IMG/VR virus record: IMGVR_UViG_3300048592_001388
Location: 1-61,026 of that record
DNA: 61,026 nucleotides
Origin: a virus
Lineage: Duplodnaviria > Caudoviricetes
Strand: one strand, 5' to 3'
The stretch's first letter is position 1. Each line of letters starts with the position of its first letter. Made by a program: the position numbers and the translations under genes. This document shows positions 5,534-43,166 of this stretch, one piece after another. The notes under the pieces were generated by a model. The model made no database searches. It saw only the letters and a program-made list of their open reading frames with translations, and had not been told where the DNA came from.

Positions 5534-5583
5534 GTGATCCTGTCAGATGATAGGTCGCCTCTTTGGATGACATAGCAGTTTGC

Positions 5584-12588: not shown

Positions 12589-12652
12589 GCAAGAGCCGCC
12601 CCGTGCGGCATGGTGAACAGCCACATCGGCGTTACATATGGGGGAGCAATCG

Positions 12653-14584
12653 ATGGACAAGTCGCCCGTGCGTGTTCCTGCGGCGCGCAAGCGCAAGGAT
12701 GGCAGCCATCACCCGCACCACCGCATCCTAAGCATCGAGGTGGCGGGAGGCTTTCTCGACGGTACGCGGCTCGAATTCAGCGACGGCCTCAACTGCATCA
12801 TTGGCGGCCGCGGGACGGGCAAGACGACGGTCCTCGAGTTCATCCGCTACATTCTCGGCATGATGCCGGACGTGAACGACAACCGGCCCCGCGCCAAGGC
12901 CATCGAGGGCCATGTGCGCGGCAATCTCGGCAGCGGGACCATCTATCTCGAGGTCGAGACCAAGCATGGGACGCGCTACCGGGCGGAGCGGCCGTGGGGA
13001 GACGACGTGCAGGTGCTCGATCGTGACGGTGAGCCGGTGCCTGTGTCCCTCGATCGCGATCTCGTGTTCAAGGCCGACATCTACAGCCAGAACGAGATCG
13101 AGGAGATCGCCACCACGCCGCGCTTCCAGCTTTCGCTGATCGACCGCTTCGCCGAGGAGGAAATCCGCGAGGTCGAAACAGAAATCGCGCGGGCGAAGCG
13201 CCAGGTCCAGGACAGTGCGGCGGAACTGCGCATGATCGAAGGCCGTATCCGCGAGGCTGAGGAGGTGGTCCCGGAAATCGATGTCGTCGGCAAACGGTTG
13301 CAGGAACTGCAGGTTGCCGACGGCGCCGATGCCGGGCTGATCAATGCAGCTCATTCGCACAAGGCGCTGCGGGGCCGCGAATCCGCAGCGCTTGGCGACC
13401 TTCGCCTCGCGATCAACGACGCCAGGGCCACTATGCGCCGCCAGGGCGAGTATGTCGCAGAAGCATGCTCCGCTCCCCTCATCGCCGATTTTCGGGAGGG
13501 CCCCAACGCGGCTCTGTTCGAGGAGGTCGAAAGCCTGATGGCCTCCTTCGTCGACACATACCGCGCAGAGGCGAAGCGGCTGGAGAACGCGGGACAGACC
13601 GTGCTGGAGCAACTCAGCGCCCTTTCCGAACAATTGGCCAGTGACCATGCGCGGCAGGAACAGGACTACCGCGAGCTCGTGGCGCAATCGGACGTCGAAC
13701 GCCAGCATGCCGCCGAGCGCGCCAGCCTGCAAAAGCGCCACCTGTTCCTGACGCGCGCACAGCATGATCTTGCCGGCCTTCGCCAGAAGCACAAAGCCAT
13801 GGAAGCCCGTCACCGCAAGCTGATGGGGGAATTCTCCGGCTTCCGCGACAAGCGCTTCGCACTGCGCAAGGAGGTCGCCGACCGCCTGTCACAGGACCTT
13901 TCACCCATGGTCCGGGTGACGGTGCGCCAGGCGGGCGACCGCAGCAGCTACGAAACCGTCCTCAAGGAGATGCTGAAGGGATGCGGGCTGCAATACATGC
14001 GCCCCGTGATGCGGATCGTGGAAACCGTGTCGCCCGAGGAGCTGTCGCGCCTCGTCCGCAAGGGTGACGCGGCACGCCTTGCGGAGGATGCCGGCATCGG
14101 CGAGGAGCAGGCCGGCCGGATCCTGTCCCACCTCAAGGCGTCCGATCAGCTTTCGGGTGTCGAGACCGTCGATCTCGAGGATGAACCTCTGATCGAACTA
14201 AAGGACGGCACCGACTATAAGAACTCGGCCGGGCTCTCGACGGGTCAGCGCTGTACCGTTATCCTGCCCATCCTTCTGCTGCAGAGCGAAAGGCCGCTGC
14301 TGATCGACCAGCCTGAGGACAATCTCGACAACGCCTTCGTCTATGACACCATCGTCCGCAATCTCCAGGAGGCGAAGGGCGGCCGGCAGCTGATCTTCGC
14401 CACGCACAATCCGAACATCCCGGTGCTGGGCGAAGCCGACAGAGTGTTCGTCTTCTCCTCTGACGGGCGCAGGGGCCGCGTGACGCATACTGGCCGCGTC
14501 GATGATGTGAAGGATCAGGTCGAGCATCTCCTCGAGGGTGGCAAGGAAGCCTTCGTGCTTCGCATGCAGCGCTATGGTCACTGA
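12653..14584 (+). CDS. SMC/Rad50-like coiled-coil ABC ATPase (resembles the TrlF/Ppl-type ATPase domain, no PHP domain)
   Basis: Walker A GGRGTGKT, Q-loop YSQNE, long coiled coil, signature LSTGQ, Walker B LLIDQPEDNLD, H-loop ATHN; RBS GGGGAG before ATG 12653. Confidence 0.88.
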   Translation: MDKSPVRVPAARKRKDGSHHPHHRILSIEVAGGFLDGTRLEFSDGLNCIIGGRGTGKTTVLEFIRYILGMMPDVNDNRPRAKAIEGHVRGNLGSGTIYLEVETKHGTRYRAERPWGDDVQVLDRDGEPVPVSLDRDLVFKADIYSQNEIEEIATTPRFQLSLIDRFAEEEIREVETEIARAKRQVQDSAAELRMIEGRIREAEEVVPEIDVVGKRLQELQVADGADAGLINAAHSHKALRGRESAALGDLRLAINDARATMRRQGEYVAEACSAPLIADFREGPNAALFEEVESLMASFVDTYRAEAKRLENAGQTVLEQLSALSEQLASDHARQEQDYRELVAQSDVERQHAAERASLQKRHLFLTRAQHDLAGLRQKHKAMEARHRKLMGEFSGFRDKRFALRKEVADRLSQDLSPMVRVTVRQAGDRSSYETVLKEMLKGCGLQYMRPVMRIVETVSPEELSRLVRKGDAARLAEDAGIGEEQAGRILSHLKASDQLSGVETVDLEDEPLIELKDGTDYKNSAGLSTGQRCTVILPILLLQSERPLLIDQPEDNLDNAFVYDTIVRNLQEAKGGRQLIFATHNPNIPVLGEADRVFVFSSDGRRGRVTHTGRVDDVKDQVEHLLEGGKEAFVLRMQRYGH

Positions 14585-14593
14585 GGTTCGGGC

Positions 14594-15712
14594 ATGGATA
14601 GCCTGGCGCTTCTGCCCGCCGCCGTCGAAGGCGGGGATTGGCAAGACATCCGAGAACTGGTCGAGCGCACCGGGGAAGGCCTTCGCCTGTCCTCCGTGTC
14701 GTCCTCACGCATCCCTGAACTTGCACAGCTGTTCCTGCGCCTGTCGCGCCACGAGAACTGGCAGGTCCGCAAGGCGGTCGCGCACGCAGCGCTGTACCTC
14801 CGTCACGACCTGTTTCACGGCATCATCGCCAATCTGATCGACGACGACAATCTCTGGGTCCGTGACATCGCCCGAAAGACGCTGGTCCGGCGCAGCGAAC
14901 TGTCGCGCGCTGAGGTCAGGGCGCAGGATCCCTTCGATGCCGACGCCGCCCTGCTGGACGAGATCGAGAACCGCTATGGCGTGAAGGCGAGGAGGAGCGT
15001 GGTGGCCGCCGCCAGCAAGCTTCATCACCGTTTCGTCAAGGAAGTCTATCACGAGATCATCCGGATCCTGTCCCCGCTCGATACTTGCCTCGTCAACCTG
15101 GAACGGGATCTGTCCGGCAAGCCGGGGCTGGAGCACGCGGCGGACCGCATCCGGCGCGGCCATCATCATGTCGGCCTGATCACCGAGGTCCTCGAGAATC
15201 TGCGGGAGTTCACCGACGGCAAGCCCGCCGAGACGACCCGGGAGTGTCTGTCCTCGATCCTGAAGGAGGCCGTTTCGCTCGCGCAGCAAGGCGCTGCGGT
15301 ACCGCAGCCGACTCTGATGTTCAGCTTGCTGCTGCCAGAGAGCCTGTTCATCTCGGGTCATCGCTCGCGGCTGCTGCAGGCCTTCATCAACATCATCACC
15401 AATGCCATGGAGGCCTGCGAGGCTTCCGACCGGCAGGGGCGCATTGCCGTGAGCATCGAGCGCCAGTCGGAAGACTTCGCGAGGGTGCTGATCACCGATA
15501 ATGGCTGCGGGATGAGCCGTGACGCCGTGCGCGACTGCGTCGACCTGTTCAGCTCCGGCAAGGTTAGTGGCATGGGCTTCGGTCTTCCCATCTCCCGGAA
15601 AGTCATCGAGCAGGACCACAGCGGAATCCTCGCCCTCGAGAGCAGTCCGGGCGAGGGCACTACCGTCACGGTTCTCTTGCCCATCGAGCGTCTGGAGATG
15701 GAAGCGTCATGA
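14594..15712 (+). CDS. Cytoplasmic HEAT-repeat histidine kinase
   Basis: HEAT-like repeats (ENWQVRKAVA, DDNLWVRDIA), H-box YHEI, N-box NIITNAMEA, G1 DNGCGM, G2 GMGFGL; no transmembrane segment. Confidence 0.87.
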   Translation: MDSLALLPAAVEGGDWQDIRELVERTGEGLRLSSVSSSRIPELAQLFLRLSRHENWQVRKAVAHAALYLRHDLFHGIIANLIDDDNLWVRDIARKTLVRRSELSRAEVRAQDPFDADAALLDEIENRYGVKARRSVVAAASKLHHRFVKEVYHEIIRILSPLDTCLVNLERDLSGKPGLEHAADRIRRGHHHVGLITEVLENLREFTDGKPAETTRECLSSILKEAVSLAQQGAAVPQPTLMFSLLLPESLFISGHRSRLLQAFINIITNAMEACEASDRQGRIAVSIERQSEDFARVLITDNGCGMSRDAVRDCVDLFSSGKVSGMGFGLPISRKVIEQDHSGILALESSPGEGTTVTVLLPIERLEMEAS

Positions 15713-16464
15713 GTAATCACAGAGCCCTCATCGTGGAAGACGAGCGGGACATGGCCGCTGAGATTGGCGATCTCCTGGGATCGATGGGGTACGACCATGT
15801 CGCAATTGATAATCTCGCCGATGGCCGACGCCTGCTCGATGGAGGTGAGTTCTGCTTCATTCTCCTCGATCTGCAGATCAAGGCCGAGAAGTTTTCGATC
15901 CGTCCGCGCGTCGAAGCTGGCATGACATTCCTGAGGGAGTTGCGCCAGAAACATCCGCGCCGCGGTGACAACGACATGCACCTTTTGCCCGTCATCGTTG
16001 TGAGCGGCCATGCCAAGGAGCACGAGGACATCGTGCGCGCATTCCAGGCGGGTGCAAACGACTTCGTGAGAAAGCCACTCGGGCAGTTCGGGCAAGACCT
16101 TTCCGCCAAGATCGAGGCGTGTCTGGATCGTTCCGGACGTCACAGCCATGCCGCGTGCTGTGCCAATGCTGATGATGTCCGGCCGGAATGTGTGGTGGAG
16201 AACATTACACACTCTTCCGATTATCGCGAAGTGTGGTTCAGGGGTGAGCTCTTCATGTTCGGCGAACTGCAGGCCAGGGTCATCCGCTATCTCCACGAGG
16301 CATGGAAGTCGGGCAGTCCATGGGTCTCTGGGAAAGCCATCCTGCGCCGCGTCGGGTCCGGGGACTCCGCAGCAAAGCTCGCCAATCTCTTCCGTCGCCA
16401 TCCGGCCTGGCAGAAGCTTCTGCTTTCCGATGGACGCGGGGGGTATCGGCTCGCGGACGGATGA
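15709..16464 (+). CDS. Response regulator: receiver domain plus C-terminal winged-helix-like domain
   Basis: LIVEDE, phospho-acceptor LLDL, VVSGH, FVRKP; C-terminal domain QARVIRYLHEA..GKAIL..SDGRGGYRL; ATGA overlap with the kinase. Confidence 0.87.
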   Translation: MSNHRALIVEDERDMAAEIGDLLGSMGYDHVAIDNLADGRRLLDGGEFCFILLDLQIKAEKFSIRPRVEAGMTFLRELRQKHPRRGDNDMHLLPVIVVSGHAKEHEDIVRAFQAGANDFVRKPLGQFGQDLSAKIEACLDRSGRHSHAACCANADDVRPECVVENITHSSDYREVWFRGELFMFGELQARVIRYLHEAWKSGSPWVSGKAILRRVGSGDSAAKLANLFRRHPAWQKLLLSDGRGGYRLADG

Positions 16465-26984: not shown

Positions 26985-27557
26985 ATGCGGGTTCAGTTCC
27001 TCGAGGCCGATGATGTCCGCACCCGCTTCGAAGCAGCGTGCACGCGTCTTGGTGAGAGTGATGCCCGCCGCGCCTTCTCGATGGCGCTCAACAAGGAAGG
27101 CCGCAAGTCGTTCACGCAGCTGCGCCGGGCTCTGGCGCAGCAATCCTCAATCCCGCGTGGCGCGGTCAACGCTGCAACACGTTTCCAGTCCGCAACGCGC
27201 GCCACGATGTCTACCGTGACCTCCGGCACTGGCCGTCATCTGCCTCTTTCGGTCTTCGGTGCAAAGCAGTTCTCCTACGGCGTGCGTGCAAAGATCTGGG
27301 GCAGGGCGCAGACCTTCCGCTCTGCCTTCGTGGTGAAGCGTTACGGTGGCGGCGTGTTCAAGCGCACGGGCAAGGCGAGGTTTCCCATCGAGCAGCTGTG
27401 GGGTCCTGCGGTCCCCGTCGAGATGCTGCGTGATAAAGCGTATGCCGCCTGGACCGATCAGCACCCTCGCGTGCTGAAGGAGTCGGCACGCCTGATCGAA
27501 ATGATGCTGACTGGAGCGGGCTTCCGGGGGCTCCCGCGTAATCGTAGTCGTGCGTAG
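26985..27557 (+). CDS. Phage tail completion / GpZ-like protein
   Basis: AFSMALNK, SAFV..GGVFKRTGKARFPIEQLWGPAVP; Arg-rich. Confidence 0.7.
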   Translation: MRVQFLEADDVRTRFEAACTRLGESDARRAFSMALNKEGRKSFTQLRRALAQQSSIPRGAVNAATRFQSATRATMSTVTSGTGRHLPLSVFGAKQFSYGVRAKIWGRAQTFRSAFVVKRYGGGVFKRTGKARFPIEQLWGPAVPVEMLRDKAYAAWTDQHPRVLKESARLIEMMLTGAGFRGLPRNRSRA

Positions 27558-27718
27558 GGGGGCGGGCCCAGGAGCCCCATTGCGGGGTTCTGAGTAGCGC
27601 TGGCGCGGCGGCCCGGTTTTCGCGCGTTTTTCTGCTTTTGATTTTTCCGTTTTGTTTTGACTCGCACGCGCTGAAACGCCCGGAAAACTGGCATTTCCAT
27701 TGAGAGTTAGGGGGTCCG

Positions 27719-28978
27719 ATGATCGTCACCGACATGCCGGTGGAGAGCCTGGTTCCCTATGCCCGCAACCCGCGCAACAACACCGCCGCCATCGACGCGG
27801 TGAAGGCGTCGATCGCCGAGTTCGGCTTCCGCCAGCCCATCGTGGTGGACGAGAAGCTGGTGGTGATCGTCGGGCACACCCGGCTCGAGGCCGCGAAGCA
27901 GCTGGGCCTCAAGACTGTCCCGGTGCATGTGGCCGAGGGCCTGACCCCGGCGCAGGCCAAGGCCTATCGCATCATGGACAACCGCTCGCACGAGAATGCC
28001 GAGTGGGATGATGAACTCCTGCGGCTGGAATTCGGAGACCTGAAGCTCGACGACTTCGACCTAGCGCTGACCGGCTTCGTCTCCGACGAGCTCGACAAGC
28101 TCCTGGGCGCAGAGCAGATCGAGGGTCTCACTGACCCGGATGAGGCACCCGAGGTTCCCGCCGAAGCTGTCAGCCGGCCGGGCGACCTCTGGATCCTCGG
28201 CGATCACCGCGTGCTCTGCGGCGACTCGACCGTGATGACCGATGTCGAGAAGCTGATGGGCGGCCAACTGGCTGACATGGCGGTGACGGATCCACCCTAC
28301 AACGTGGATTACGGCAACAGCGCCAAGGACAAGATGCGCGGCAAGGACCGCCGCATCCTGAACGACGCGCTGGGCGATGGCTTCTATCAGTTCCTCTATG
28401 ACACCTGCGTCAACCTGCTCATGGTGATCAAGGGTGCCTGTTACATCTGCATGAGTTCCTCGGAACTCCACACCCTGCAGAAGGCTTTCACCGACGCCGG
28501 TGGCAAGTGGTCGACCTTCATCATCTGGGCGAAGAATACCTTCACACTCGGGCGCGCAGATTATCAGCGGCAGTACGAGCCGATCCTCTACGGCTGGAAG
28601 GACGGCAGTCAGCACTACTGGTGCGGCGCCCGCGACCAGGGTGATGTCTGGTTCGTGGACAGGCCGCGGGTGAACGACCTGCACCCCACCATGAAGCCGG
28701 TGGAGCTCATCGAGCGGGCCATCACCAATTCGTCCAAGAGCCGGGATATCGTCCTCGACCTGTTCGGCGGGTCGGGTACCACCCTCATCGCCGCCGAGCG
28801 CACCGGCCGCTCGGCGCGGCTGATGGAACTCGACCCCAAATACGTCGATGTTATCGTCCAGCGCTGGCAGGATTACTCTGGCAACACCGCGGTGTTGGCC
28901 GGCGAAGATCGGACCTTTGACGACCTCAAGTCGAGCCGCGCGAAACGCGCGGATCAATCCGTTCTATGTGAAGGCTGA
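27719..28978 (+). CDS. ParB-domain-fused amino-DNA methyltransferase (N6/N4, beta class)
   Basis: ParB-like PYARNPR..FGFRQP..GHTRL; catalytic DPPY; HPTMKPV; DLFGGSGTT. Confidence 0.92.
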   Translation: MIVTDMPVESLVPYARNPRNNTAAIDAVKASIAEFGFRQPIVVDEKLVVIVGHTRLEAAKQLGLKTVPVHVAEGLTPAQAKAYRIMDNRSHENAEWDDELLRLEFGDLKLDDFDLALTGFVSDELDKLLGAEQIEGLTDPDEAPEVPAEAVSRPGDLWILGDHRVLCGDSTVMTDVEKLMGGQLADMAVTDPPYNVDYGNSAKDKMRGKDRRILNDALGDGFYQFLYDTCVNLLMVIKGACYICMSSSELHTLQKAFTDAGGKWSTFIIWAKNTFTLGRADYQRQYEPILYGWKDGSQHYWCGARDQGDVWFVDRPRVNDLHPTMKPVELIERAITNSSKSRDIVLDLFGGSGTTLIAAERTGRSARLMELDPKYVDVIVQRWQDYSGNTAVLAGEDRTFDDLKSSRAKRADQSVLCEG

Positions 28979-29149
28979 TCGTAGCTTTGCTTCCAATGCA
29001 GCGATCTCGTCCTTGAGCACGAGCTTTTTGTGTTTCAGTTCGGCGATCTCCTGATCGCTGGATGAGGAATGAAGCAGCGCATCGGCAAGATCTGCCTCGA
29101 GTTGCCTGTGCTGCTCCTTGAGTACTTCGAGTCGAGCTTGGATTGACAT
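28964..29149 (-). CDS. DUF465 / YdcH-like coiled-coil protein (moron)
   Basis: MSIQARLEVLKEQHRQLE..IAELKHKKLVLKDEI; strong RBS GAGGAGG. Confidence 0.8.
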   Translation of the reverse strand: MSIQARLEVLKEQHRQLEADLADALLHSSSSDQEIAELKHKKLVLKDEIAALEAKLRSAFT

Positions 29150-29248
29150 AGTCCCTCCTCTGTCGAGTGCCGAACAAGGCAGAATGCACATCAGAGTGCA
29201 ACCGAATTTGCTCTTCGTCAAATGGACAGCAGATGAGCTGGAGGTCCT

Positions 29249-29464
29249 ATGCAATCACGCTTCATGTCACTCCTTGAGGCGGTCACCAACATCGTGGTGG
29301 GCTACGGCCTCGCCGTGCTGACCCAGATCATTGTGCTTCCGGTCTTCGGGTTTCACGCATCGGTGAGCGAAAATCTTCTGATAGGCGGGGCATTCACGGT
29401 CATCTCTTTGATTCGCAGTTACGCGCTCAGGCGACTGTTCATCGCTGTGGCGAAACTGGATTGA
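29249..29464 (+). CDS. Small phage membrane protein
   Basis: QSRFMSLLEAVTNIVVGY..RSYALRRLF, two hydrophobic segments; usual neighbour of phage methylases. Confidence 0.75.
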   Translation: MQSRFMSLLEAVTNIVVGYGLAVLTQIIVLPVFGFHASVSENLLIGGAFTVISLIRSYALRRLFIAVAKLD

Positions 29465-29555
29465 CCTGACAAGCCCATACCATTTATCGTTTGGATATGG
29501 TCTGTGACTGACCATCGATCGAGGCTGGGAAGCCCACCGGCAGCCTTGACTGACT

Positions 29556-29585
29556 GAGCCACCAGCTCCCCCAAGCTGGTGGCTC
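29556..29585. terminator. Hairpin between convergent genes
   Basis: 12-bp stem GAGCCACCAGCT/AGCTGGTGGCTC with a 6-nt loop; no clear U-tract. Confidence 0.45.
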
Positions 29586-29608
29586 GTCTGTTTCGAGAGC
29601 TGCCTCGA

Positions 29609-30076
29609 TTACGATGTCTTGTAGATCCGTCCTCTGATGTCATCCTTCTCCGAACTGACGACCAGCCCAAGCTTCTTCTTCAAGACGCCTGCCATGGCGC
29701 CCCGCACCGTGTGGGACTGCCAGCCTGTGGCATCGACGATCTCTGCGATGGTTGCACCCTCAGGGCGACGCAGAAGTTCGACCAGCAGGGCCTGTTTGGT
29801 GCCTCCGCGGATCTGGCGGTCCGTGCTCGTGGGAGTGGCTCGCTGTAACTCGGATTTTTCTGCTGACAGGACCAGCTTCTGACCATCCTTGGCGTAGTCG
29901 CCTTCGCCGGCGAGGCCGCGTGGTTCCAGTCTGCCCTTTCGGATCAAACTGGCAATGGCAGCACCGTAGGCGCGAGGGTCGGCTTTGGACTTCGACCGCT
30001 CGCGGGTGGGCACAACGCCATTGTTGCGGGCGGTGGTGGTAAGTATGACCTGTTCGGTGTCGGTGAGTTTCGTCAT
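29609..30076 (-). CDS. DUF3489 family protein
   Basis: TKQALLVELLRRPEGATIAEI..TGWQSHTVRG..LKKKLGL. Confidence 0.9.
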   Translation of the reverse strand: MTKLTDTEQVILTTTARNNGVVPTRERSKSKADPRAYGAAIASLIRKGRLEPRGLAGEGDYAKDGQKLVLSAEKSELQRATPTSTDRQIRGGTKQALLVELLRRPEGATIAEIVDATGWQSHTVRGAMAGVLKKKLGLVVSSEKDDIRGRIYKTS

Positions 30077-30174
30077 GAGTTTGCTCCTTTGCTTCGGACC
30101 GGCGCGTGTCGCCAGTTCCTAGGAGCCCAAGCCCCGCGTCTGAGGCGGGGCGGAGGTGAGGGATGGCCGGGGCC

Positions 30175-30399
30175 TCACTCGGCGTGTTCGCCTTCCTTGA
30201 AGGCGGCGTCGGTAACGCGCTTCAGCTGGGAGGCGTAATAGTCGAGGTTCCCGACGTGTCCCCAATGCAGCGTATCGGGATCGGTTTCGAAATGGCTGGC
30301 GCTGAGCGCAGCGAGTCTTGCCAGCATGGTGTCGATCTCGGCCTTCCTGGCGATGAAGGCAGCGAGGGCCTTGCTGTTGTCCTTGGTGCAGCTTTGCAT
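30175..30399 (-). CDS. Small hypothetical protein (DUF3489 neighbour)
   Basis: ALAAFIARKAEID..HF..P..HWGHVG; RBS CAGGAG. Confidence 0.75.
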   Translation of the reverse strand: MQSCTKDNSKALAAFIARKAEIDTMLARLAALSASHFETDPDTLHWGHVGNLDYYASQLKRVTDAAFKEGEHAE

Positions 30400-30651
30400 G
30401 GCGGTCTCCTGTTGGAGCCATACATGCTTCATGTGCGCCGGAAGACAAGCGGAATGAACGATCATGATATTGCTTTATGAGCAGGCCAAGAGCCTGACAT
30501 GAACGGGGACCCTACCCGCCCCTGGGACGCGCGATGATGCCGATGGAACCTGATTCGAACGACGGCCGGAGACGCCTCTTGTTCCTGATCAGCTGACTGA
30601 TCAGCACCTGCACGGGAGGCGAGCTTCAGTCTGACGTCGTTCTCCGACGGC

Positions 30652-31362
30652 TCAACTCAAATTGTGACTCTTGATCTTCTCCATCCACGCGTCCAGCGGC
30701 ATTTTTGCAACCTTTGCCGCTACGTCATGACTGCCGCCGGCCTCCTGCAGAATTGCCATCAAACACCGCTTCTCGAGTGCAGAAGCCGTCTCCGCAATTA
30801 CTTTGTCGAACGGCGAGCGTTCGATTTGCGCTAGAACACTTTCAACAGGAGAATCGGCCGTTCCTGGTTCATTGAGACCTCGTGCGGGGCTTTCAAGTTT
30901 CCGCAGCTTTTCATTGTACTGGTATTCCATCTCACGCTGAGCCGCCAGGAAGCGGTCGTTCGCTGCCTGCAATGGTCGCAGGTCACGCAGAACCAACATT
31001 TGGGCTTCCCGTCCATCGCTTCTCAGGACCAGATAACGTGCGAGAACCGGGATGAAGGTTCCAGCAGCGCCCACCAGATTGATGTGCCGCCAGGGAACCG
31101 CGGATGACGTCTCACTCGCATCGTTCGACATCAGAACATCGATTTTTCCGAGGGACTCTGGTCCGACGATGGTTCTGACAGGGTGCCCAATCCAGTGCGA
31201 GACGTCAGCGGCGGAAAAACTATCGGAGTGGACGGCATCGATCACAATGGAGTTATGATCGATGAATAGCGTAAGGTCCTGTGTCTTGTCGATCAACAAT
31301 CGCACCCATGCGGATGACAACGCGGGCAGTGTCACAGATTGGAGGGGATGTGCAGAAGCCAT
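30652..31362 (-). CDS. Miniature PpsR/CrtJ-like protein (N-domain, Q-linker, degenerate Fis-like HTH)
   Basis: DLTLFID, WIG..V..ES..K, WRHINL, RDLRPL....RF..AQ..ME and P...VI.ET...LEK.C match PpsR segments, but only 236 aa with no room for PAS1/PAS2. Confidence 0.75.
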   Translation of the reverse strand: MASAHPLQSVTLPALSSAWVRLLIDKTQDLTLFIDHNSIVIDAVHSDSFSAADVSHWIGHPVRTIVGPESLGKIDVLMSNDASETSSAVPWRHINLVGAAGTFIPVLARYLVLRSDGREAQMLVLRDLRPLQAANDRFLAAQREMEYQYNEKLRKLESPARGLNEPGTADSPVESVLAQIERSPFDKVIAETASALEKRCLMAILQEAGGSHDVAAKVAKMPLDAWMEKIKSHNLS

Positions 31363-31365
31363 GAT

Positions 31366-32172
31366 TCAGTTTCTCGAAAGTTCGACGGTCGTTGTGCCGG
31401 AGCAATACCCCAGCGCGTCTTCAACACTGAGCGCGATATAGTCTGCGCCCAGCCACTCATACTGGGTCCTAGGCGACGAAAAAACATTGCCCCCCAAAAT
31501 GATCTTCACGGATGGATTCCGACTCTTCTGGCGCAGCAGCGATATGAACTGTCCGAGATCAAGAAGTCCCTCATCATAACCGACCGAGAGACCAATGAAG
31601 TCGGCGGACCAGTCTGTTGCAGACCGTACTATACCGTCAGGATGATCGTTCGTGAAAGTCTGCGTGTCCCATCCAGCCGCACGAAAGCTGTCGCCGACGA
31701 CTGACAGCCCGAAGACGTGCTGAGTTTCTGGCGCGGCAGCCAGAAGGACCCGACCCCAGGCCGACCCCTTGGGTCTTGTCTGGTTGGGTCTCTTACTTTC
31801 GAGACGGCTCAGGAGCTGTTCTACGTTCCAGAACGCATAGACCGTATCGGTATAACTCCGTTGGCCGGCGCGCCAGTCGTTCTCGAGCTGAGGAATCACG
31901 GGAAGAATCAAGCTGAGCTGATCACGAGTTCCGACTGACGCGCTCTCCAGGGAAGAATTCAGGATCAACTCTGCTTGCTGCAGATCGCCATCGCAAAACG
32001 CCTCAAGAAGCGAAGTGCTTGACGGCCCCTCCTGCGACATGTCGCTGACACTTGCACGACTCGGGAGTGCGCGGAGTTTGAGCGCCTGGAGGGTGTCACC
32101 AAGCCACTTGCGACAATCCTGGATAGCGGCACTCGTCATGGGCGCCTTCGGGAATGGCATTGAAACGGTCAT
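31366..32172 (-). CDS. AerR/PpaA-like cobalamin-binding domain protein
   Basis: Helical cap (LENDW...SYTD), Rossmann B12 domain RVLLAAAPETQHVFGL..F..AGW, IGLSVG, ILGG, LGAD; 3-nt gap to the PpsR-like gene. Confidence 0.82.
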   Translation of the reverse strand: MTVSMPFPKAPMTSAAIQDCRKWLGDTLQALKLRALPSRASVSDMSQEGPSSTSLLEAFCDGDLQQAELILNSSLESASVGTRDQLSLILPVIPQLENDWRAGQRSYTDTVYAFWNVEQLLSRLESKRPNQTRPKGSAWGRVLLAAAPETQHVFGLSVVGDSFRAAGWDTQTFTNDHPDGIVRSATDWSADFIGLSVGYDEGLLDLGQFISLLRQKSRNPSVKIILGGNVFSSPRTQYEWLGADYIALSVEDALGYCSGTTTVELSRN

Positions 32173-32299
32173 AAACCGTTTAGCCAGTTTGTGCGGGCAT
32201 GTCCATCCACTGGGGCTCCGGAAAGCGTCGGTGGTGCGTCGGGGTTGAGCAATACGCGCTCGTCTGGGGGATTACTATTCAAGGGAAGGGGCCTGCAGG

Positions 32300-32797
32300 A
32301 TGGCGGAACATGCAGGCCTGATCCCCATCGGCCAGGCCGCGCGGCTGCTGATGATCTCGGAGGAGCGTATCCGGCAGCTGGTGAAGCAGGGCTTCATCCC
32401 GCGACCTGAGAAGCGCGGTTTCGTGCAACTCGTGGGGGCTGTGCAGGGATACCTGCGTTACCTGAAGGATGATGAGCGCCGCTCCGCCAAGTCGGCCGCC
32501 GACAGCCGGGTGCGCGATGCTCGGGCGCTCGAAATCGAACTCCGCATCGCCGAGCGCTCGCGCGAGCTGATCCCGGTCGAGGATGCACTCAACGACATGG
32601 CGGAGCTCGCGGGCATGGTGAGGTCGGAGCTTGCAGGGCTTCCGGCGCGGCTGACCCGCATCGTGGCCGAGCGCCAGAAGGTTGAAACAGAGATTGATGG
32701 TGTCCTCTCGCGCCTTTCCCAGCGAGCCGCAGAAAAGGCTGAAGGCCTGGAGGCTGGCCGAAGCCATCCTCCTGCCGGCGCCGAAGCTGCCGCCTGA
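32300..32797 (+). CDS. Terminase small subunit (Nu1-like)
   Basis: N-terminal HTH ISEERIRQL, coiled coil, ELIP..LAGLPARL; overlaps terL. Confidence 0.8.
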   Translation: MAEHAGLIPIGQAARLLMISEERIRQLVKQGFIPRPEKRGFVQLVGAVQGYLRYLKDDERRSAKSAADSRVRDARALEIELRIAERSRELIPVEDALNDMAELAGMVRSELAGLPARLTRIVAERQKVETEIDGVLSRLSQRAAEKAEGLEAGRSHPPAGAEAAA

Positions 32798-34736
32798 CGA
32801 GTGGGCGCGTCTTCACAGGGTCTATCCTGAAACGTCAGGCCTTCCCGGTCCGCGTGATCCCGGTCTCACGCCCTACATGGTTCCGATGACGCATGCGGTG
32901 CATGGCGGAGCGTACAAGCGCGTGGTGATGGTGTGCTCTGCGCAAAGTGGCAAAACGGAATCCCTGTTGGATGTCTTGGGCGCACGTCTCGACCAGCGCC
33001 CTGCACCAATACTGTACGTGGGTCCGATCCGGGACTTCCTGACCGACCAGTTCGAGCCGCGCCTCATGAGTCTGCTCGACGAAGCCGAGACGCTCTCGGC
33101 CAAGGTGGTGCGCGGGCGGCGCATGAAGAAGACGCTGAAGATCGTGGCCGGCGTTCCGGTACGGCTTGCGCATGCAGGATCGTCGGCGGCCTTGAAGTCG
33201 AGCCCTGCAGCACTCGCGCTGGTCGACGAGTACGACGAGATGCTGGCGAACGTGAAGGGGCAGGGCGATCCCTTGGGGTTGGTCGAAGCCCGCGGCGAGA
33301 CCTACGCCGACTTCGTTACCGCCATCACCTCGACGCCCTCGCGTGGGTTGATCGAAACCGAATTGGATGAGCGAAGCGGTTTCAGGTTCTGGAAGGTTGC
33401 GGTCCCAGAGGCCGTCGAGAGCGCCATCTGGAAGCTCTGGCAATCTGGTACACGGCATCATTTCTGCTGGCCGTGCCTACACTGCGACAAGTACTTCGTG
33501 CCGCGCTTCGAGCAGATGCGCTGGCCCGAGAATGCCACGCCGGCGGAAGCGTCAAAGGCAGCGCAGTTGCAGTGCCCGCATTGCGGCGGCTTGCACCAGG
33601 ATGCTGACAAGCAGGAGATGAACGCCCGGGGTCTGTACGTGGCGCCGGGGCAATGGGTGGAAAAGGGAGAAGTCCGGGGCCAGCCCCCGGAAAACGCGGT
33701 GATCAGCTTCTGGGCCAGCGGGCTGGCGAGCCCCTTCGTCACCTGGGGCACCCGGATCGAGCGTTATGTCCGCGCTCTTGCTTCGGGCGATCCCGACCAG
33801 GTGCAGACAGCGCTGAATGCCGGGTTCGGCGAGTGCTTTACTCCCGCTGCAGGCCGTGATGCGTTGGACTGGCAGGAGATCCTGCAGCGTCGCGAACCTT
33901 ACCGCATGAAAGAGGTACCCGGCGGCGTTCTGCGGTTGGGGATGGGCGTCGATGTGCAGAAGCTGTCATTATACTACACCATCCGCGGCTTCGGCGCGCG
34001 GGGACGGTCTTGGCTCATCGACCGCGGACAGCTTTACGGCCCCACCGACGACGACGAGGTATGGAACGCGCTTGCCGACCTGATGCTCACGCCCATCGCT
34101 GGACTGCAGATCGAGCGGGTGTTCGTGGACTCCGGCTTCCGCCCGAACAAGCCCGATGCAGGCGACGAACACAAGGTCTACGAGTTTGTCAGGCGCTATC
34201 CGTGGCTGGTTTCACCCACCAAGGGCCGGGCCAGCATGTCGCCGCCCTACCGGGTGTCGAAGATCGAGGTGACGCCGCGAGGCAAGAAGGCGACCTACTC
34301 CATCGATCTGGTCTGGCTTTCGACCGACTTCTTCAAGTCGCTTCTGGTGTCGCGGATCCGCACACCTCTCGATCAGCCGGGGTCTTTCATCGTGCCGGAC
34401 GATATTGACGAGGATTACGCGAAGCAGCTTGTCTCCGAGGTACGCGTTGTCGATGGCGCCACCGGCAAGCCGCAGTGGGTCCAGAAATCACGGGCCAACC
34501 ACTATCTCGACTGCGAGGCGCTTGCCATGGCCATCGGCTACTCGCTGAACGTCCAACGAATTCCGGATGGGGTGACGAGGGAGAGCCGCGGTGCTGAAAC
34601 CGGCCCTGAGACTGGAAGTGACACTGACAATGACGAAGCGACGGTTCGGGACAAGCCGGTAGTGGCTCTTGCTGCGGGAGCGATGCCGGACTTGCGTTCG
34701 CGCTTCGCAGGCCTTTCGTCACGATTGAACAGGTGA
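32682..34736 (+). CDS. Terminase large subunit, lambda GpA family
   Basis: TPY, SAQSGKT, VDEYD, STP, CPHCG, GVDVQ, VDSG, NHYLDC. Start uncertain (ATG at 32697 possible). Confidence 0.93.
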   Translation: MKQRLMVSSRAFPSEPQKRLKAWRLAEAILLPAPKLPPDEWARLHRVYPETSGLPGPRDPGLTPYMVPMTHAVHGGAYKRVVMVCSAQSGKTESLLDVLGARLDQRPAPILYVGPIRDFLTDQFEPRLMSLLDEAETLSAKVVRGRRMKKTLKIVAGVPVRLAHAGSSAALKSSPAALALVDEYDEMLANVKGQGDPLGLVEARGETYADFVTAITSTPSRGLIETELDERSGFRFWKVAVPEAVESAIWKLWQSGTRHHFCWPCLHCDKYFVPRFEQMRWPENATPAEASKAAQLQCPHCGGLHQDADKQEMNARGLYVAPGQWVEKGEVRGQPPENAVISFWASGLASPFVTWGTRIERYVRALASGDPDQVQTALNAGFGECFTPAAGRDALDWQEILQRREPYRMKEVPGGVLRLGMGVDVQKLSLYYTIRGFGARGRSWLIDRGQLYGPTDDDEVWNALADLMLTPIAGLQIERVFVDSGFRPNKPDAGDEHKVYEFVRRYPWLVSPTKGRASMSPPYRVSKIEVTPRGKKATYSIDLVWLSTDFFKSLLVSRIRTPLDQPGSFIVPDDIDEDYAKQLVSEVRVVDGATGKPQWVQKSRANHYLDCEALAMAIGYSLNVQRIPDGVTRESRGAETGPETGSDTDNDEATVRDKPVVALAAGAMPDLRSRFAGLSSRLNR

Positions 34737-34740
34737 GCCC

Positions 34741-36339
34741 ATGGGCATGATGGATCGGATGCGGGACTGGCTTGCGCCGTCCCGCGCGAGATCCGTTGCG
34801 CCTCCCGCAATCCGCGCCGACTTCATGCGCGGGAATCGTGGTGTGGTGTTCGGCGGCTGGCGGCCGGCGCTTCGAGAAGCGGCCGATGACGTCGGCGCTT
34901 CCTGGGACCTTGCTGCGGCGCGCACCATTGACCTGATCCAGAATTCCGGATGGATGGCAGGCGCCTTGGACCAGGCGGTTGCCAACACCATCGGTACGGG
35001 TCTCCGATTGAAGGCCATGCCCGAGAATGACCTCTTCGGCATGAGCAACGCTGAGGCCGAGAGCTGGGCCCAGACCGTCGAGCAGCGCTGGAGCCTTTGG
35101 GCTGACAAGCCCTACGAGTGCGACATCGAGGGACGGCGGTCATTCGGGCTGATGCAGGCCGCTGCTTTTCGCTCCTGGTTCGCCACCGGCGAGATCTGGG
35201 CTGAGCTTCCCTGGCGGGAACGAGCCGGGGGGCGCTACGGCACGAAGGTCAGGCTCATTCCGCCCCACCGGGTTGTCCGGCGCAATGAGGCATCCCGCAA
35301 CATCGTACAGGGTGTCCGTATGGATAATGACGGCATGCCCGTCGGCTATGTCGCCACCCGCAAGGACCTGTCTCTTGGCACCGTGGAATACGATGTCACC
35401 GCGCGCGATGATCTTGGTCGCATCCGCGTTATCCATGTCTTCGACGGCATGCCGGGGCAGGTGCGGGGGATTTCTCCGCTGACACCCGCCCTGCAGGTGG
35501 CGCGCCAGTTCGACCAGCTTTCGGATGCGACCCTCACGGCGGCCATTCTGCAGACGGTCTTCGCGGCCTCCATCACCTCGGATGAGCCGACGGAGGAAGT
35601 TCTCTCGGGCCTGCTCACGCCGCAGGAGCAGGCACGGCTTTCAGCCAGCGGCATCTCGCCGTGGGACGCTTATATCCAGGCCCAGTCGGGCTGGTACGAC
35701 AATGCCACCATCAATCTCGGCATCAATGGCCGGATTGCCCATCTGTTTCCGGGCCAGAAGCTCGAGCTTCACCGCGCCCAGCATCCGCATTCGGACTACC
35801 GGGACTTTGCAGCACACCTGCTTCGCGAACTCGCCCGCTGCATGGGGCTCACCTATGAGAGCGCCACGGCGGACTACACAAACGCCACCTACTCGAGCGT
35901 CCGCATGGCGTCCGGCGAGATCTTCCAGATCACGCTCTACCGCCGGGCACATATTCTTGGACCCTTCTGCACTGCCGTCTATGAAGCCTGGCTCGAGGAG
36001 GAGATCGCCCGCGGGGGCATTCCGTTCCCCGGCGGACTCGATGGCTTCCTTGCCAACCGCTCGGCGGCCTCGCGCGCCATCTGGCGGGGAGCGCCCAAGC
36101 CCCAGGCGGATGACCTCAAGATGGCCAAGGCCCACGAGATCTGGTGCCGACTCGGCGTCATGACGGACGCGGCGATCGCCGAGGATCTCGGCCACGACAT
36201 CGAAGACGTTTATGCGCAGCGCGCCCGCGAGAAGGCGCTCCGCGAAACTTACGGCCTGCCCGACCACCAGTACCAGGGGGTCACCAACCCCTCTGGTGAC
36301 TCCGCTGACGATCCTGCCGAGGACAGCTCACAGCAATGA
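34741..36339 (+). CDS. Portal protein, lambda family
   Basis: GQVRGISPL, GLTYE..DY..ATYSSVR; follows terL. Confidence 0.9.
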   Translation: MGMMDRMRDWLAPSRARSVAPPAIRADFMRGNRGVVFGGWRPALREAADDVGASWDLAAARTIDLIQNSGWMAGALDQAVANTIGTGLRLKAMPENDLFGMSNAEAESWAQTVEQRWSLWADKPYECDIEGRRSFGLMQAAAFRSWFATGEIWAELPWRERAGGRYGTKVRLIPPHRVVRRNEASRNIVQGVRMDNDGMPVGYVATRKDLSLGTVEYDVTARDDLGRIRVIHVFDGMPGQVRGISPLTPALQVARQFDQLSDATLTAAILQTVFAASITSDEPTEEVLSGLLTPQEQARLSASGISPWDAYIQAQSGWYDNATINLGINGRIAHLFPGQKLELHRAQHPHSDYRDFAAHLLRELARCMGLTYESATADYTNATYSSVRMASGEIFQITLYRRAHILGPFCTAVYEAWLEEEIARGGIPFPGGLDGFLANRSAASRAIWRGAPKPQADDLKMAKAHEIWCRLGVMTDAAIAEDLGHDIEDVYAQRAREKALRETYGLPDHQYQGVTNPSGDSADDPAEDSSQQ

Positions 36340-41325: not shown

Positions 41326-41607
41326 ATGCCACGCTACGCCATCACCGAGAGGGCGGGCCCCTTCGTCGCGGCCCATCGCAACACCGGGGTAGGGACCGTT
41401 CTTGATCTCACCGAGCGCCAGGCCGGGCATGAGTTGCGGATAGGCACGCTGGTCCGGTTGCCCGAGCCTGATCAGAGCGCCACCGGCAAACCAGATGTCG
41501 CGCCCGTCATTGTCGCGGCTCCGACTGAACTCCCGACCACGCCGGTCAGTGAGCAGAAAACCGATGCAGTGGCGCCGTCGCGCAAGCCCAGGCGGTCCGC
41601 CACTTGA
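41326..41607 (+). CDS. Hypothetical protein
   Basis: 93 aa, RBS AAGGA; folded N-terminal half and low-complexity tail. Confidence 0.6.
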   Translation: MPRYAITERAGPFVAAHRNTGVGTVLDLTERQAGHELRIGTLVRLPEPDQSATGKPDVAPVIVAAPTELPTTPVSEQKTDAVAPSRKPRRSAT

Positions 41608-43166
41608 GCCTGAGCTATCTTTCCGTCTGCTCAGGCATCGAAGCAGCGACGGTCGCCTGGCATCCGCTGGGCTTCCGTCCGCTGGCCTTCTCCGAGATCG
41701 AGCCTTTCGCACGGGCGGTGCTCACCCATCACTATCCTGATGTGCCGCTGCATGGCGATTTCACGCTGCTGCGCGACGAGGACTGGATCGCTGGGGCCGA
41801 CATCCTGGTGGGCGGAACGCCATGCCAGGGATTTTCGATCGCAGGCCTGCGCCGCTCTCTTGATGACGCCCGTGGAAACCTCACCCTCGAGTTTTTGAGG
41901 CTTGCCGATGCCATTGATGAACGCCGCGACCGAGAAGGCCTCCCACCATGCATCGTTGTCTGGGAGAACGTCCCCGGCGTGCTCTCGGTCCGCGATAATG
42001 CCTTCGGCTGCTTCCTCTCGGGGTTATCTGGAGAGGACACCCCCTTCGTTCCGCCACGGGGCAAATGGACGAACGCGGGTGTGGCTCTTGGACCCGCGCG
42101 CGCAGTCGCGTGGCGGATCCTCGACGCCCAATTCTTCGGACTGGCCCAACGGCGCCGTCGTGTGTTCGTTGTCGCAAGTGCTCGAGAGGGGTTCGATCCC
42201 GCGGCGATTCTTCTTGAGTTCGAAGGCCTGCGCCGGGATTCTCCGCCGCGCCGAGAAGCGTGGCAAGACCTTGCCGCCGATGTTGCATCAGGCGCTGACG
42301 AGCGTCGCAGCCACTGGGACGGCGTAGAACATCCGCATCCCACGCTGAACCAGTCGTTCAACACCGGCGCCATCGGCTACAGCAATCAGGAACTGTTCAG
42401 CCAGCGAGGCGCGGGACTCGTTGGTGAGGCTTCGACGGGAGAGATCAGCCACTGCCTGAACGCCGGCGGCATGGGACGGCAGGATTACGAAACCGAGACG
42501 CTGGTCACACACGCGCTCCGCGGTGAAGGCTTCGATGCGTCGGAGGATGGCACGGGCAGAGGCACCCCACTGGTTCCGGTGGCCTTCTCGGCCAAGGATC
42601 ACGGCGCCGACGCCACGGAAGACCTTTCGCCCACGCTCAGGGCCATGCCGCATGATGCGAGCCATGCCAATGGCGGCGGCCAGATGGCGGTTGCCGTGCC
42701 TCTGCTGGAAGTCGGCAAGCGCACCGGACCGTCGTCGACCGATGACATGCGGGCCGGGCTCGGCATCGGCGAGGATGGCGACCCCATGTTCACCCTGCAG
42801 GCCGGGGCGCAGCACGGAGTCGCGGCCTATGCCTTCCAGGCAAGGATTGCCCGCAACGGGCGCGGCGACATGGGCGACCTCGTCAATGCCCTCACCATGT
42901 CCGGCGAGACGGGGAAGGGCGATACCGCGCCCTGCGTTGCGTTGCCAATGATGGTGCGTCGCTTGACGTGCGAAGAGGCGGAATCCCTGCAAGGCTTTCC
43001 GCGAGGATATACGCGCATTCCTTGGAAGAAGAGGTCCGCCGAAGACTGCCCCGACGGACCCCGTTACCGCGCGCTCGGCAATTCCATGGCGGTGAACGTC
43101 ATGGGCTGGATCGGAGAGCGCATCAGGGCGATGGTTGAGAACGGGAAAGACGGAGTGGAGCCATGA
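41604..43166 (+). CDS. DNA (cytosine-5) methyltransferase
   Basis: Motifs SVCSGIEA, GTPCQ, WENV, QRRRRVF, RRLT..E..LQGFP, LGNS; long variable region. Confidence 0.92.
   Translation: MSLSYLSVCSGIEAATVAWHPLGFRPLAFSEIEPFARAVLTHHYPDVPLHGDFTLLRDEDWIAGADILVGGTPCQGFSIAGLRRSLDDARGNLTLEFLRLADAIDERRDREGLPPCIVVWENVPGVLSVRDNAFGCFLSGLSGEDTPFVPPRGKWTNAGVALGPARAVAWRILDAQFFGLAQRRRRVFVVASAREGFDPAAILLEFEGLRRDSPPRREAWQDLAADVASGADERRSHWDGVEHPHPTLNQSFNTGAIGYSNQELFSQRGAGLVGEASTGEISHCLNAGGMGRQDYETETLVTHALRGEGFDASEDGTGRGTPLVPVAFSAKDHGADATEDLSPTLRAMPHDASHANGGGQMAVAVPLLEVGKRTGPSSTDDMRAGLGIGEDGDPMFTLQAGAQHGVAAYAFQARIARNGRGDMGDLVNALTMSGETGKGDTAPCVALPMMVRRLTCEEAESLQGFPRGYTRIPWKKRSAEDCPDGPRYRALGNSMAVNVMGWIGERIRAMVENGKDGVEP

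Follow-up and report, generated by a model that had tools for sequence, protein, structure and literature searches.

Why would a provirus carry a shortened relative of the photosynthesis regulator PpsR, placed directly behind a gene for a vitamin B12-binding protein? Purple and aerobic anoxygenic phototrophs control their photosynthesis genes through a central switch formed by PpsR/CrtJ and AerR/PpaA. The question is raised by the IMG/VR provirus record IMGVR_UViG_3300048592_001388, of which all 61,026 nucleotides were analysed (hereafter the window), and by an open reading frame (ORF) on its minus strand encoding a 236-residue short PpsR paralogue, here called mini-PpsR. A preliminary description of this gene, made from the sequence alone, had proposed that the protein keeps the oligomerisation parts of PpsR, lacks its PAS1 and PAS2 domains and its recognition helix, and might act as a dominant-negative decoy. 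The comparisons in the current study indicate that mini-PpsR has kept the partner-binding parts of PpsR and lost the DNA-reading residues; therefore, it probably retunes the host switch instead of binding genes itself. The underlying observation is solid and broader than the preliminary description could have known, and the phage context is new. The parts of the two-gene module are listed below, with the evidence for each in parentheses.

30652-31362, minus strand: mini-PpsR, short PpsR paralogue of 236 residues (ORF, TIGR02040, PDB entries 4hh3 and 4hh2, AlphaFold2 model, Foldseek)
30982-31314, minus strand: N-cap helix and N-terminal PAS, residues 17-127 (AlphaFold2 model, alignment)
30892-30978, minus strand: Q-linker helix, residues 129-157 (AlphaFold2 model, alignment, PMC9144470)
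30814-30885, minus strand: disordered joint at the place of PAS1 and PAS2, residues 160-183 (predicted local distance difference test score, pLDDT, below 50; two-stretch profile match)
30667-30810, minus strand: degenerate Fis-type helix-turn-helix (HTH), residues 185-232 (alignment columns, helix charge)
31366-32172, minus strand: AerR-like cobalamin-binding partner of 268 residues (PF02310, match to AerR 7te2, AlphaFold2 model, spacing)

Architecture and family of the short PpsR

The ORF at 30652-31362 starts with ATG, has an intact frame and yields a translation that includes ALEKRCLMAILQEAGGSHDVAAKVAKMPLDAWMEKIKSHNLS. The NCBIfam model for PpsR-CrtJ (TIGR02040) matched residues 23-161 over only positions 1-136 of its 442 (E 6e-19), and residues 9-160 align with the solved PpsR chains 4hh3 and 4hh2. 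At 68.4 bits, the match falls below the curated cut-off of 275.4, so the protein as a whole does not qualify as a PpsR/CrtJ. When 28 short relatives were combined into a profile (A1), every one of 41 full-length PpsRs was matched twice, with one stretch (model positions ~11-154) covering the N-domain and Q-linker and the other (~171-234) covering the C-terminal HTH, which lies at residues ~400-465 of the full-length proteins; the ~240 residues between the two stretches were unmatched. PAS1 and PAS2 are therefore absent from mini-PpsR and its two ends are joined, as the preliminary description had read. The AlphaFold2 (AF2) model (mean pLDDT 79) contains an N-cap helix (residues 17-26), a PAS core (30-127) and a 29-residue helix (129-157), followed by a disordered segment (160-183) and helices at 185-207, 212-218 and 223-232. 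The PpsR structures 4hh3, 4l9g and 4hh2 were the top Foldseek matches to this model. The profile and structure matches thus agree with the earlier claim that the oligomerisation and partner-binding parts are retained: the N-terminal PAS and Q-linker helix characteristic of PpsR/CrtJ are present, and where PpsR has PAS1 and PAS2 between the Q-linker and HTH, the model has a 24-residue disordered joint. The PAS residues W57-x-G59, K73 and W91-R92-H93-x-N95 are common to mini-PpsR and the 41 full-length PpsRs, and an invariant RDLR (126-129) precedes the Q-linker helix; the N-cap residues of mini-PpsR are specific to the short family.

The HTH columns were compared between 44 short and 41 full-length proteins, using mini-PpsR numbering. 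All 41 full-length PpsRs contain N211, S222, R223, Q224, Y227 and K229, as well as a basic residue at position 212 (R in 93%). Among the short proteins, position 212 is basic in 5% and position 223 in none (L, I or P instead), while 70% have D or E at position 224 and 77% at position 228. The mean charge of the recognition helix is -0.32 in the short forms (range -3 to +2) compared to +3.68 in the full-length forms (range 3 to 4); in mini-PpsR, this helix reads PLDAWMEKIK and has a net charge of 0. Mini-PpsR therefore has an HTH fold in its AF2 model without R212, R223, Q224 and Y227, and lacks the conserved N-R...S-R-Q-S-L-Y-x-K recognition pattern. The preliminary description had noticed both an altered recognition segment in an intact frame and a retained cysteine ahead of the HTH. 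Both points hold well beyond the window, with the arginine, glutamine and tyrosine lost across the 44 short forms and the cysteine, C200, which is equivalent to Cys420 of CrtJ, invariant in all 44 short and all 41 full-length proteins.

A word-indexed homologue search returned 40 proteins of 159-240 residues, with identities from 95% down to 30%, and 1057 proteins passed E <= 1e-3 in an exhaustive profile search. The top 150 cluster representatives of the latter consisted of 46 short proteins (214-251 residues, with the whole model covered), 82 full-length proteins (at least 400 residues) and 22 fragments or proteins of other lengths. Short forms carry database names such as 'hypothetical', 'DNA-binding protein Fis' and 'transcriptional regulator with PAS, ATPase and Fis domain'. 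The third helix was non-canonical (not of the SRQSLY type) in 45 of the 46 short representatives. The lone exception, P0160 (246 residues), has a canonical PpsR N-domain and a canonical LGLSRQSLYMKMRR helix without PAS1 or PAS2; it seems to have arisen from a true PpsR by a separate, recent deletion, unless it is an artefact of assembly.

A quick IQ-TREE analysis of the N-domain, Q-linker and HTH columns of the 44 short and 41 full-length proteins (midpoint root for drawing only) separated the two groups by one long branch, with a support of 100 in the Shimodaira-Hasegawa-like approximate likelihood ratio test (SH-aLRT); the program warned of long branches in this tree. Given this deep split, the short form did not arise by recent truncation of a host gene. 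The window protein belongs to a 17-member clade (support 99) comprising all phage-borne copies and a Hyphomicrobiales copy (locus L003). The ratio of nonsynonymous to synonymous substitution rates (dN/dS), proposed earlier as a check among short homologues, was 0.10-0.24 for short-form pairs by the NG86 method (pairs with dS of 0.07-0.86). Values for the window gene were 0.175 and 0.167 against the L012 and L003 copies, with dS above 1 and near saturation, while the near-identical pair L026/L027 gave an uninformative 0.81 from a handful of changes. These ratios point to purifying selection on the short ppsR gene and contradict neutral decay.

Eleven further relatives (152-174 residues, or 152-180 as cluster representatives) consist of only the N-domain and Q-linker, lack the HTH, and are scored higher by the short-family N profile than by the full-length one, which suggests that these two parts are the functional core. 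Their representatives are P0099, P0122, P0137, P0146, P0153, P0159, P0182, P0186, P0188, P0189 and P0202. Five of the eleven are exactly 161 residues long despite differing in sequence, and may constitute an even smaller 'micro-PpsR' form.

The AerR-like partner and the phage setting

The preliminary description had missed the gene directly upstream of mini-PpsR, whose product matches the B12-binding domain PF02310 over residues 140-253 (E 7e-14) and, weakly, AppA_SCHIC. The TGA stop of this gene lies 3 nt ahead of the mini-PpsR ATG, a spacing from which the two genes appear to be translationally coupled. A B12-binding gene was found directly upstream of, and on the same strand as, short ppsR in 24 of 24 loci, with a spacing of -4 to +8 nt; these loci are the window, one other viral contig, two genome contigs and 20 metagenome contigs, and several are near-duplicates. 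Eighteen aligned partners share invariant H152-x-x-G155, S196-x-G198, G227-G228, E97, W100, C20, W23 and C257. The best PDB match to the partner profile was AerR (7te2, E 1.3e-13), followed by the SCHIC domain of AppA (4hh3_C, 1e-6) and CarH (6e-4). The AerR motif P-G-E-Q-H-T-L-G aligns with P-x-x-x-H-x-x-G in the partners, placing the AerR lower-ligand histidine at H152; the AerR study identifies His145 as the lower cobalt ligand of AerR (PMC9144470). In its AF2 model (pLDDT 75), the partner also shows three parts: a long helix at the N-terminus, a bundle of helices and a Rossmann domain of the B12-binding kind. At the level of motifs, the partner therefore has the helical-bundle cap and Rossmann B12 domain with a histidine lower ligand that characterise AerR/PpaA.

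Gene order points the same way. Of 50 loci with full-length ppsR, 49 have an AerR-like gene immediately upstream (the fiftieth has only ~200 nt of upstream DNA), and the window partner likewise stands directly upstream of a ppsR-type gene. When 23 module B12-binders were compared with 48 canonical AerR proteins, the module proteins were split off by one branch (SH-aLRT 100) rather than grouping with the AerR/PpaA of photosynthesis gene clusters. Among the module proteins, the window partner groups with the partners of L003, L012, L013 and L002, mirroring the short-PpsR tree. The simplest reading of these trees would be a single duplication of the whole aerR-ppsR unit, followed by reduction of the copy. 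A complex prediction with two copies of the short protein (residues 1-165) and the B12-binder gave 'no answer' (score 0.00 in both runs, run without controls) and is evidence neither way.

The features that place the module within the provirus are as follows.

29609-30076, minus strand: DUF3489 protein, downstream of the module (also in the G261 prophage)
30175-30465, minus strand: phrog_14596 protein, downstream of the module (also in the G261 prophage)
30456-32299, no strand: cargo segment of 1844 bp, comprising the module and flanking non-coding DNA (blastn and tblastn against the G261 prophage, L089)
32173-32299, no strand: divergent intergenic region between the B12-binder and the terminase small subunit gene, presumed promoter region of the module (motif and promoter scans)
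32300-32797, plus strand: terminase small subunit (TerS), start of the head module (phrog_57, E 1.7e-20)
32682-34736, plus strand: terminase large subunit (TerL) (phrog_15, E 2e-170)

A sister prophage in genome G261 is 86% identical to the window in TerL, 90% in TerS, 88% in a methylase with a ParB N-terminus (ParB-methylase), 68% in the DUF3489 protein and 60% in the phrog_14596 protein. The interval between phrog_14596 and TerS is 49 bp in that prophage compared to 1844 bp at the same site in the window; the module is therefore accessory cargo. The GC content over the module is 0.57-0.58 compared to 0.63-0.67 in the flanks. Three other phage contigs carry the pair beside terminase genes: in L002, TerS is divergent from the pair, and DUF3489 and ParB-methylase genes follow; in L012, TerL adjoins the pair; and in L013, TerL and the portal gene lie on one side and phrog_14596 on the other. 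The short proteins of these contigs are only 54-67% identical to that of the window; at a shared terminase site, such divergence indicates that the association between module and phage is old. Neither mini-PpsR nor the B12-binder matched any family in PHROGs and PADLOC, and the GenBank 'phages' collection yielded only one weak, unrelated match of 235 bp.

Within the provirus, the module sits between the replication/methylase and head modules. The left part of the window encodes a type I methylase, an IetA/IetS defence pair and a large serine recombinase. The replication genes (RecD2-type helicase, AAA_24, DUF669, Cas4-type exonuclease, helicase and primase) are followed by the ParB-methylase and then by a minus-strand block of DUF3489, phrog_14596, short ppsR and the B12-binder gene. 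Plus-strand genes for TerS, TerL, portal, protease, decoration and major head proteins come next, and then tail genes and a CHAP lysin. Several of the neighbouring genes deserve mention in their own right. The type I DNA methylase (1-2391; PADLOC MTase_I, E 7e-255) is cut by the window edge, and the IetA/IetS pair comprises an AAA ATPase (5584-6594) and an S8 subtilase (2990-5533). The segment 1-6594, with a GC content of 0.52-0.58, adjoins the serine recombinase (7115-8554) and may represent a defence island within the provirus or next to it. An SMC/AAA_23-type ATPase (12638-14584) has weak Ppl-like and LmuB-like PADLOC matches, and the overlapping genes of a histidine kinase (14594-15712) and a response regulator (15709-16464) give the phage a second sensory module. 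There are two phage methyltransferases: the fusion of a ParB N-terminus with an N6/N4 methylase beside the module (27719-28978) and another among the structural genes (41604-43166).

Links to phototrophy come from several genomes and contigs. A metagenome scan with the single protein returned nothing, whereas an alignment (A2) returned 20 loci in the metagenomes and two in genomes. Genome G261, which belongs to the same family as G001 (below), encodes PufL, PufM and a BchH above the curated cut-off, together with a full-length PpsR-type frame of 573 residues (A1 match at model positions 14-172). Because the sister prophage sits in this genome, the phage lineage infects phototrophs, and a host with PpsR is plausible for the window phage. 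Genome G002 contains a module 32% identical to that of the window as well as a full-length PpsR (384 bits) and PufL/M. The closest chromosomal copy, at 66% identity, is in G001, where it bears the NCBI name 'hypothetical protein [Aestuariivirga sp.]'. In metagenome locus L014 (1750-3900), bchE (TIGR02026, 703 bits) follows short ppsR after a 150-nt spacer that contains one TGT-N12-ACA site, TGTCATCTTAGGTTTACA; L031 is apparently the same kind of locus, cut short. Compared to canonical PpsR/CrtJ, which lies in the photosynthesis gene cluster, the window copy lies in a phage and the chromosomal copies lie in varied contexts. In L004 and L021, the module stands between a GDSL lipase gene and spoU-gatBAC, and an integrase or serine recombinase adjoins it in five of the 17 metagenome loci scanned. 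In L003, which holds the closest chromosomal copy, the flanking genes are dus and one for adenine deaminase, with cobT and cobS nearby. The distance at that locus (4526-6432) to the cobalamin lower-ligand genes cobT (DBI_PRT) and cobS is 3-5 kb, which may be chance or a link between a B12 sensor and B12 synthesis. The possibility that L003 is a hidden prophage was rejected: none of the 12 ORFs scanned between 1949 and 16978 (~8 kb around the module) matched a PHROG. Of the 14 L003 ORFs scanned in all, two had PHROG matches, one to a universal stress protein family and the other to a family without known function, and both are over 8 kb away from the module.

The DNA around the module gave no sign of control by host PpsR. 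The window contains nine TGT-N12-ACA sites compared to 5.3 expected, and at least as many occurred in 10 of 100 shuffles; none lies in 32173-32299, and one of 20 loci has such a site upstream of the module. Promoter and terminator counts in 29400-32900 were near the shuffled expectation, and no repeated operator was seen in 32173-32299 by eye, no motif search having been run across loci. Downstream of short ppsR, at 30585-30604, the palindrome CTGATCAG occurs twice with CTGA between the copies (CTGATCAGCTGACTGATCAG); the predicted RNA fold downstream of the gene is no better than that of shuffles (z -0.83). At least half of the sampled words of a 4-kb stretch around the module were present in nine sequencing runs (wastewater, activated-sludge or aquatic metagenomes, or unlabelled), and some part of it was present in 20 runs from 12 studies; its habitats include wastewater, activated sludge and freshwater. 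RNA-library contigs from three runs of two studies, compared over 27000-36000, match 30043-30537, 30650-31006 (the 3' half of short ppsR) and 31344-31620 (the junction of the two genes) with 0-4 differences, a weak hint that the module is transcribed; the uncovered parts and relative depths are uninformative.

Possible modes of action

The explanation favoured in this study, held tentatively and at somewhat less than an even chance, is that mini-PpsR is the regulator half of a miniature mobile aerR-ppsR (ppaA-ppsR) unit, namely a B12- or light-gated modulator of the host PpsR/AerR circuit that does not itself bind DNA and travels as lysogenic-conversion cargo. As part of this explanation, the carrier would be a temperate phage of phototrophic Hyphomicrobiales from soil and water, with the module as accessory cargo. 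In the structural study of PpsR (PMC3949515), the N-cap and N-domain form the dimer and the Q-linkers form a coiled coil of ~57 Å; N-Q-PAS1 constructs dimerise, whereas the tetramer needs PAS2; PpsR needs oligomerisation for DNA binding and cannot bind DNA without its N-domain; and the four-helix bundle of AppA docks on the Q-linker. The AerR study models AerR on the same Q-linker site of PpsR/CrtJ and names six Q-linker residues as universal in CrtJ orthologues (PMC9144470), which correspond to window positions 135, 138, 142, 146, 149 and 153. Of these, Q142 (80%) and E146 (86%) are retained in the short family, which has its own N135 (82%) and F138 (82%) in place of the canonical Q and L. 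By analogy, the short protein would dimerise through its N-cap, N-domain and Q-linker, and the co-diverged B12 partner would dock on that Q-linker, an arrangement seen for AppA in the solved complex and for AerR in the model. The pair may sense light, cobalamin or redox state, and would act through protein-protein contacts instead of reading TGT-N12-ACA. For a phage of phototrophs, the obvious target would be the host PpsR/AerR circuit. In a lysogen, two routes are conceivable: joint oligomers of the short protein and host PpsR that are deficient in DNA binding (the decoy of the preliminary description), or competition for, or exchange of, antirepressors of the AerR type. By either route, genes for photosynthesis and bacteriochlorophyll would be expressed differently, and the prophage or its host would gain from the change. 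Within this class of mechanisms, the narrow dominant-negative version is improbable. A bolder statement, in which a phage-carried light- and B12-sensing anti-regulator (a sensor plus a DNA-blind PpsR mimic) hijacks the master switch of host photosynthesis and moves on phages and integrative islands, is doubtful, though it merits consideration.

It is also important to note that a number of observations weigh against the favoured explanation. Q-linker positions 149 and 153 are variable in the short family, so that four of the six 'universal' residues differ, and the N-cap dimer helix, Ala-rich in full-length PpsR, is of the W19/R21/E25/K26/T27/Q28 type in short forms; with both surfaces diverged, mixing with host PpsR or host AerR is uncertain. 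The altered HTH may still bind DNA, with another specificity, since the HTH-like domain is strongly conserved in the short family (C200, G210 and A215-A216 invariant, W226 in 75%) and Pfam HTH_8 scores above its cut-off in relatives L026 and L027 (27.9 bits). The RNA-library contigs have a depth of 2-3, at which DNA carry-over is possible. Apart from BchE in L014, no photosynthesis genes were found beside the module in the 17 metagenome loci scanned. Searches of G001 for PpsR, PufLM and BchH found none in this 3.3-Mb metagenome-assembled genome, whose completeness is not known; G002, which has no detectable BchH, shows that such bins can be incomplete. Finally, G001 and G002 are the only species representatives with the module, which was found in 1 of 401 genomes of the G001 order, 1 of 401 of the G002 order and 1 of 121 of the G001 family (this sample overlaps that of the order, and the hit in both is G001 itself). 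Full-length PpsR without the module was present in 82, 45 and 28 genomes of these samples, respectively. With the module in only two genomes, a test of its co-occurrence with PpsR or photosynthesis genes has almost no power.

The conserved HTH leads to the most serious competitor, a rather unlikely one, in which the pair is an autonomous two-protein switch: the altered HTH would bind DNA with a new specificity, receive light, cobalamin or redox input through the B12 partner, and act on phage or host targets of its own, such as the divergent packaging operon, independently of host PpsR. The predicted HTH fold has a pLDDT of 84-92, its invariant residues are joined by a family-specific third-helix pattern, K229 is kept in 86% of the short forms and position 231 is basic in 64%, and two relatives exceed the HTH_8 cut-off. 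The equivalent Cys420 matters for DNA binding by CrtJ (PMC9144470). The module is also divergent to TerS in four phage contigs, and it occurs in G001, where the search for PpsR found none. However, R212, R223, Q224 and Y227 are all replaced, acidic residues have been gained at positions 224, 225 and 228, and the recognition helix has a mean charge of -0.32 instead of +3.68. In addition, a Pfam scan of the window protein found no domain even at E 0.1, HTH_8 included, eleven relatives have dispensed with the HTH, the presumed promoter region shows no repeated operator by eye, and PAS2, which full-length PpsR needs for its tetramer (PMC3949515), is absent. The loss of DNA-reading residues alongside retained dimerisation parts is what would be expected of the dominant-negative decoy, in which the short protein on its own joins host PpsR oligomers by way of the N-domain and Q-linker, blocks TGT-N12-ACA binding and derepresses photosynthesis genes. 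The dependence of PpsR on its N-domain and on oligomerisation for DNA binding (PMC3949515), the joint presence of module and full-length PpsR in G002, and the occurrence of the phage lineage in the PpsR-bearing phototroph G261 are consistent with this idea. Yet a decoy leaves the obligatory B12 partner (24 of 24 loci) unexplained and would not need a conserved HTH-like domain, the family split is deep with changed N-cap and Q-linker surfaces, and PpsR was not detected in G001; we consider it unlikely in this pure form, and the direction of the host response, derepression, is pure inference. The interpretation in the preliminary description therefore stands in part: the retained N-domain and Q-linker, the lost DNA-reading residues and the absence of decay support it, while the overlooked AerR-like partner, the deep split, the changed dimer surfaces and a module-bearing genome without a detected PpsR complicate it.

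A target unrelated to PpsR, such as another regulator or a cobalamin-dependent process, could also be reached by protein contacts, including in non-phototrophs. Such a target would fit the varied housekeeping contexts of the chromosomal copies, the integrase or serine recombinase beside five of 17 loci, the cobT and cobS genes near the L003 copy, and the lack of the photosynthesis markers searched for in G001. It becomes quite improbable when set against the only known partners of these domains, which are PpsR and AerR or AppA, and against three independent links to phototrophs (G002, G261 and bchE in L014). Two missing domains and a score below the TIGR02040 cut-off might even suggest a functionless, decaying remnant of a captured ppsR, but an intact frame, a length conserved across 46 clusters, dN/dS of 0.10-0.24, invariant motifs, strict coupling to the partner gene and retention of the same site in four phage contigs that have diverged to 54-67% identity make this reading hardly credible.

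Relation to known systems and meaning for phototrophs

The closest known systems are AerR-CrtJ of Rhodobacter capsulatus and PpaA-PpsR of R. sphaeroides, which resemble the module in gene order (a B12-binder directly upstream on the same strand) and have an N-terminal PAS, Q-linker, redox-type cysteine and HTH fold homologous to those of the module. They differ in that the module lacks PAS1 and PAS2 as well as R212, R223, Q224 and Y227, in that both of its genes form separate clades, and in that it is mobile, phage-borne and outside the photosynthesis gene cluster. Mini-PpsR accordingly fails membership of PpsR on four counts, namely score, PAS1/PAS2, recognition residues and location. More distant parallels exist in eukaryotes, where Id proteins and plant microProteins, related to transcription factors but confined to dimerisation, have dominant-negative effects. 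Mini-PpsR is proposed to follow this logic of keeping the part for dimerisation and losing the one for DNA contact, although the eukaryotic proteins are unrelated in sequence and mini-PpsR additionally keeps a conserved DNA-binding fold and a co-encoded sensor partner. Cyanophages carry photosynthesis genes such as psbA as auxiliary metabolic genes. Like the module, these are host-type, photosynthesis-related genes in phages; however, they are structural or enzymatic and concern oxygenic phototrophs, whereas the module is regulatory and would belong to a temperate phage of anoxygenic phototrophs.

Two further comparisons come from within the PpsR system itself. In the AppA-PpsR2 complex (4hh3), the part contacted by AppA, the Q-linker of the N-Q dimer, is exactly the part kept by the short protein (PMC3949515), and the SCHIC domain of AppA is also matched by the module partner profile (E 1e-6). 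The partner differs in having a cobalamin-type histidine and no BLUF domain. HP1 (Rru_A0625) of Rhodospirillum rubrum is described as a natural reduced PpaA/AerR-like member of the same system that still works (PMC10734443), which shows that reduced members of the PpsR/AerR system can be functional. There, the antirepressor is reduced and its B12 domain lost, whereas in the module the repressor is reduced and the B12 domain is intact. In the full-text literature searched, from which subscription journals are largely absent, only laboratory truncations of PpsR were found and no phage-borne PpsR or AerR.

A conserved, natural, partner-binding-only form of PpsR that travels on phages with its own cobalamin sensor points to modulation by a mimic, a mode undescribed for this system. 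If the bolder statement above is correct, the module would represent the first phage photosynthesis gene that is regulatory rather than enzymatic, and a bacterial counterpart of the Id and microProtein dominant negatives with a built-in photoreceptor. The pair of 236- and 268-residue proteins would offer a compact natural tool for examining how AerR-type proteins read the Q-linker, and possible parts for B12-based optogenetic tools. The finding would also broaden the idea of phage-carried photosynthesis genes, from the enzymes of cyanophages to regulators borne by temperate phages that infect anoxygenic phototrophs; on the bolder reading, the prophage would decide when its host builds photosystems.

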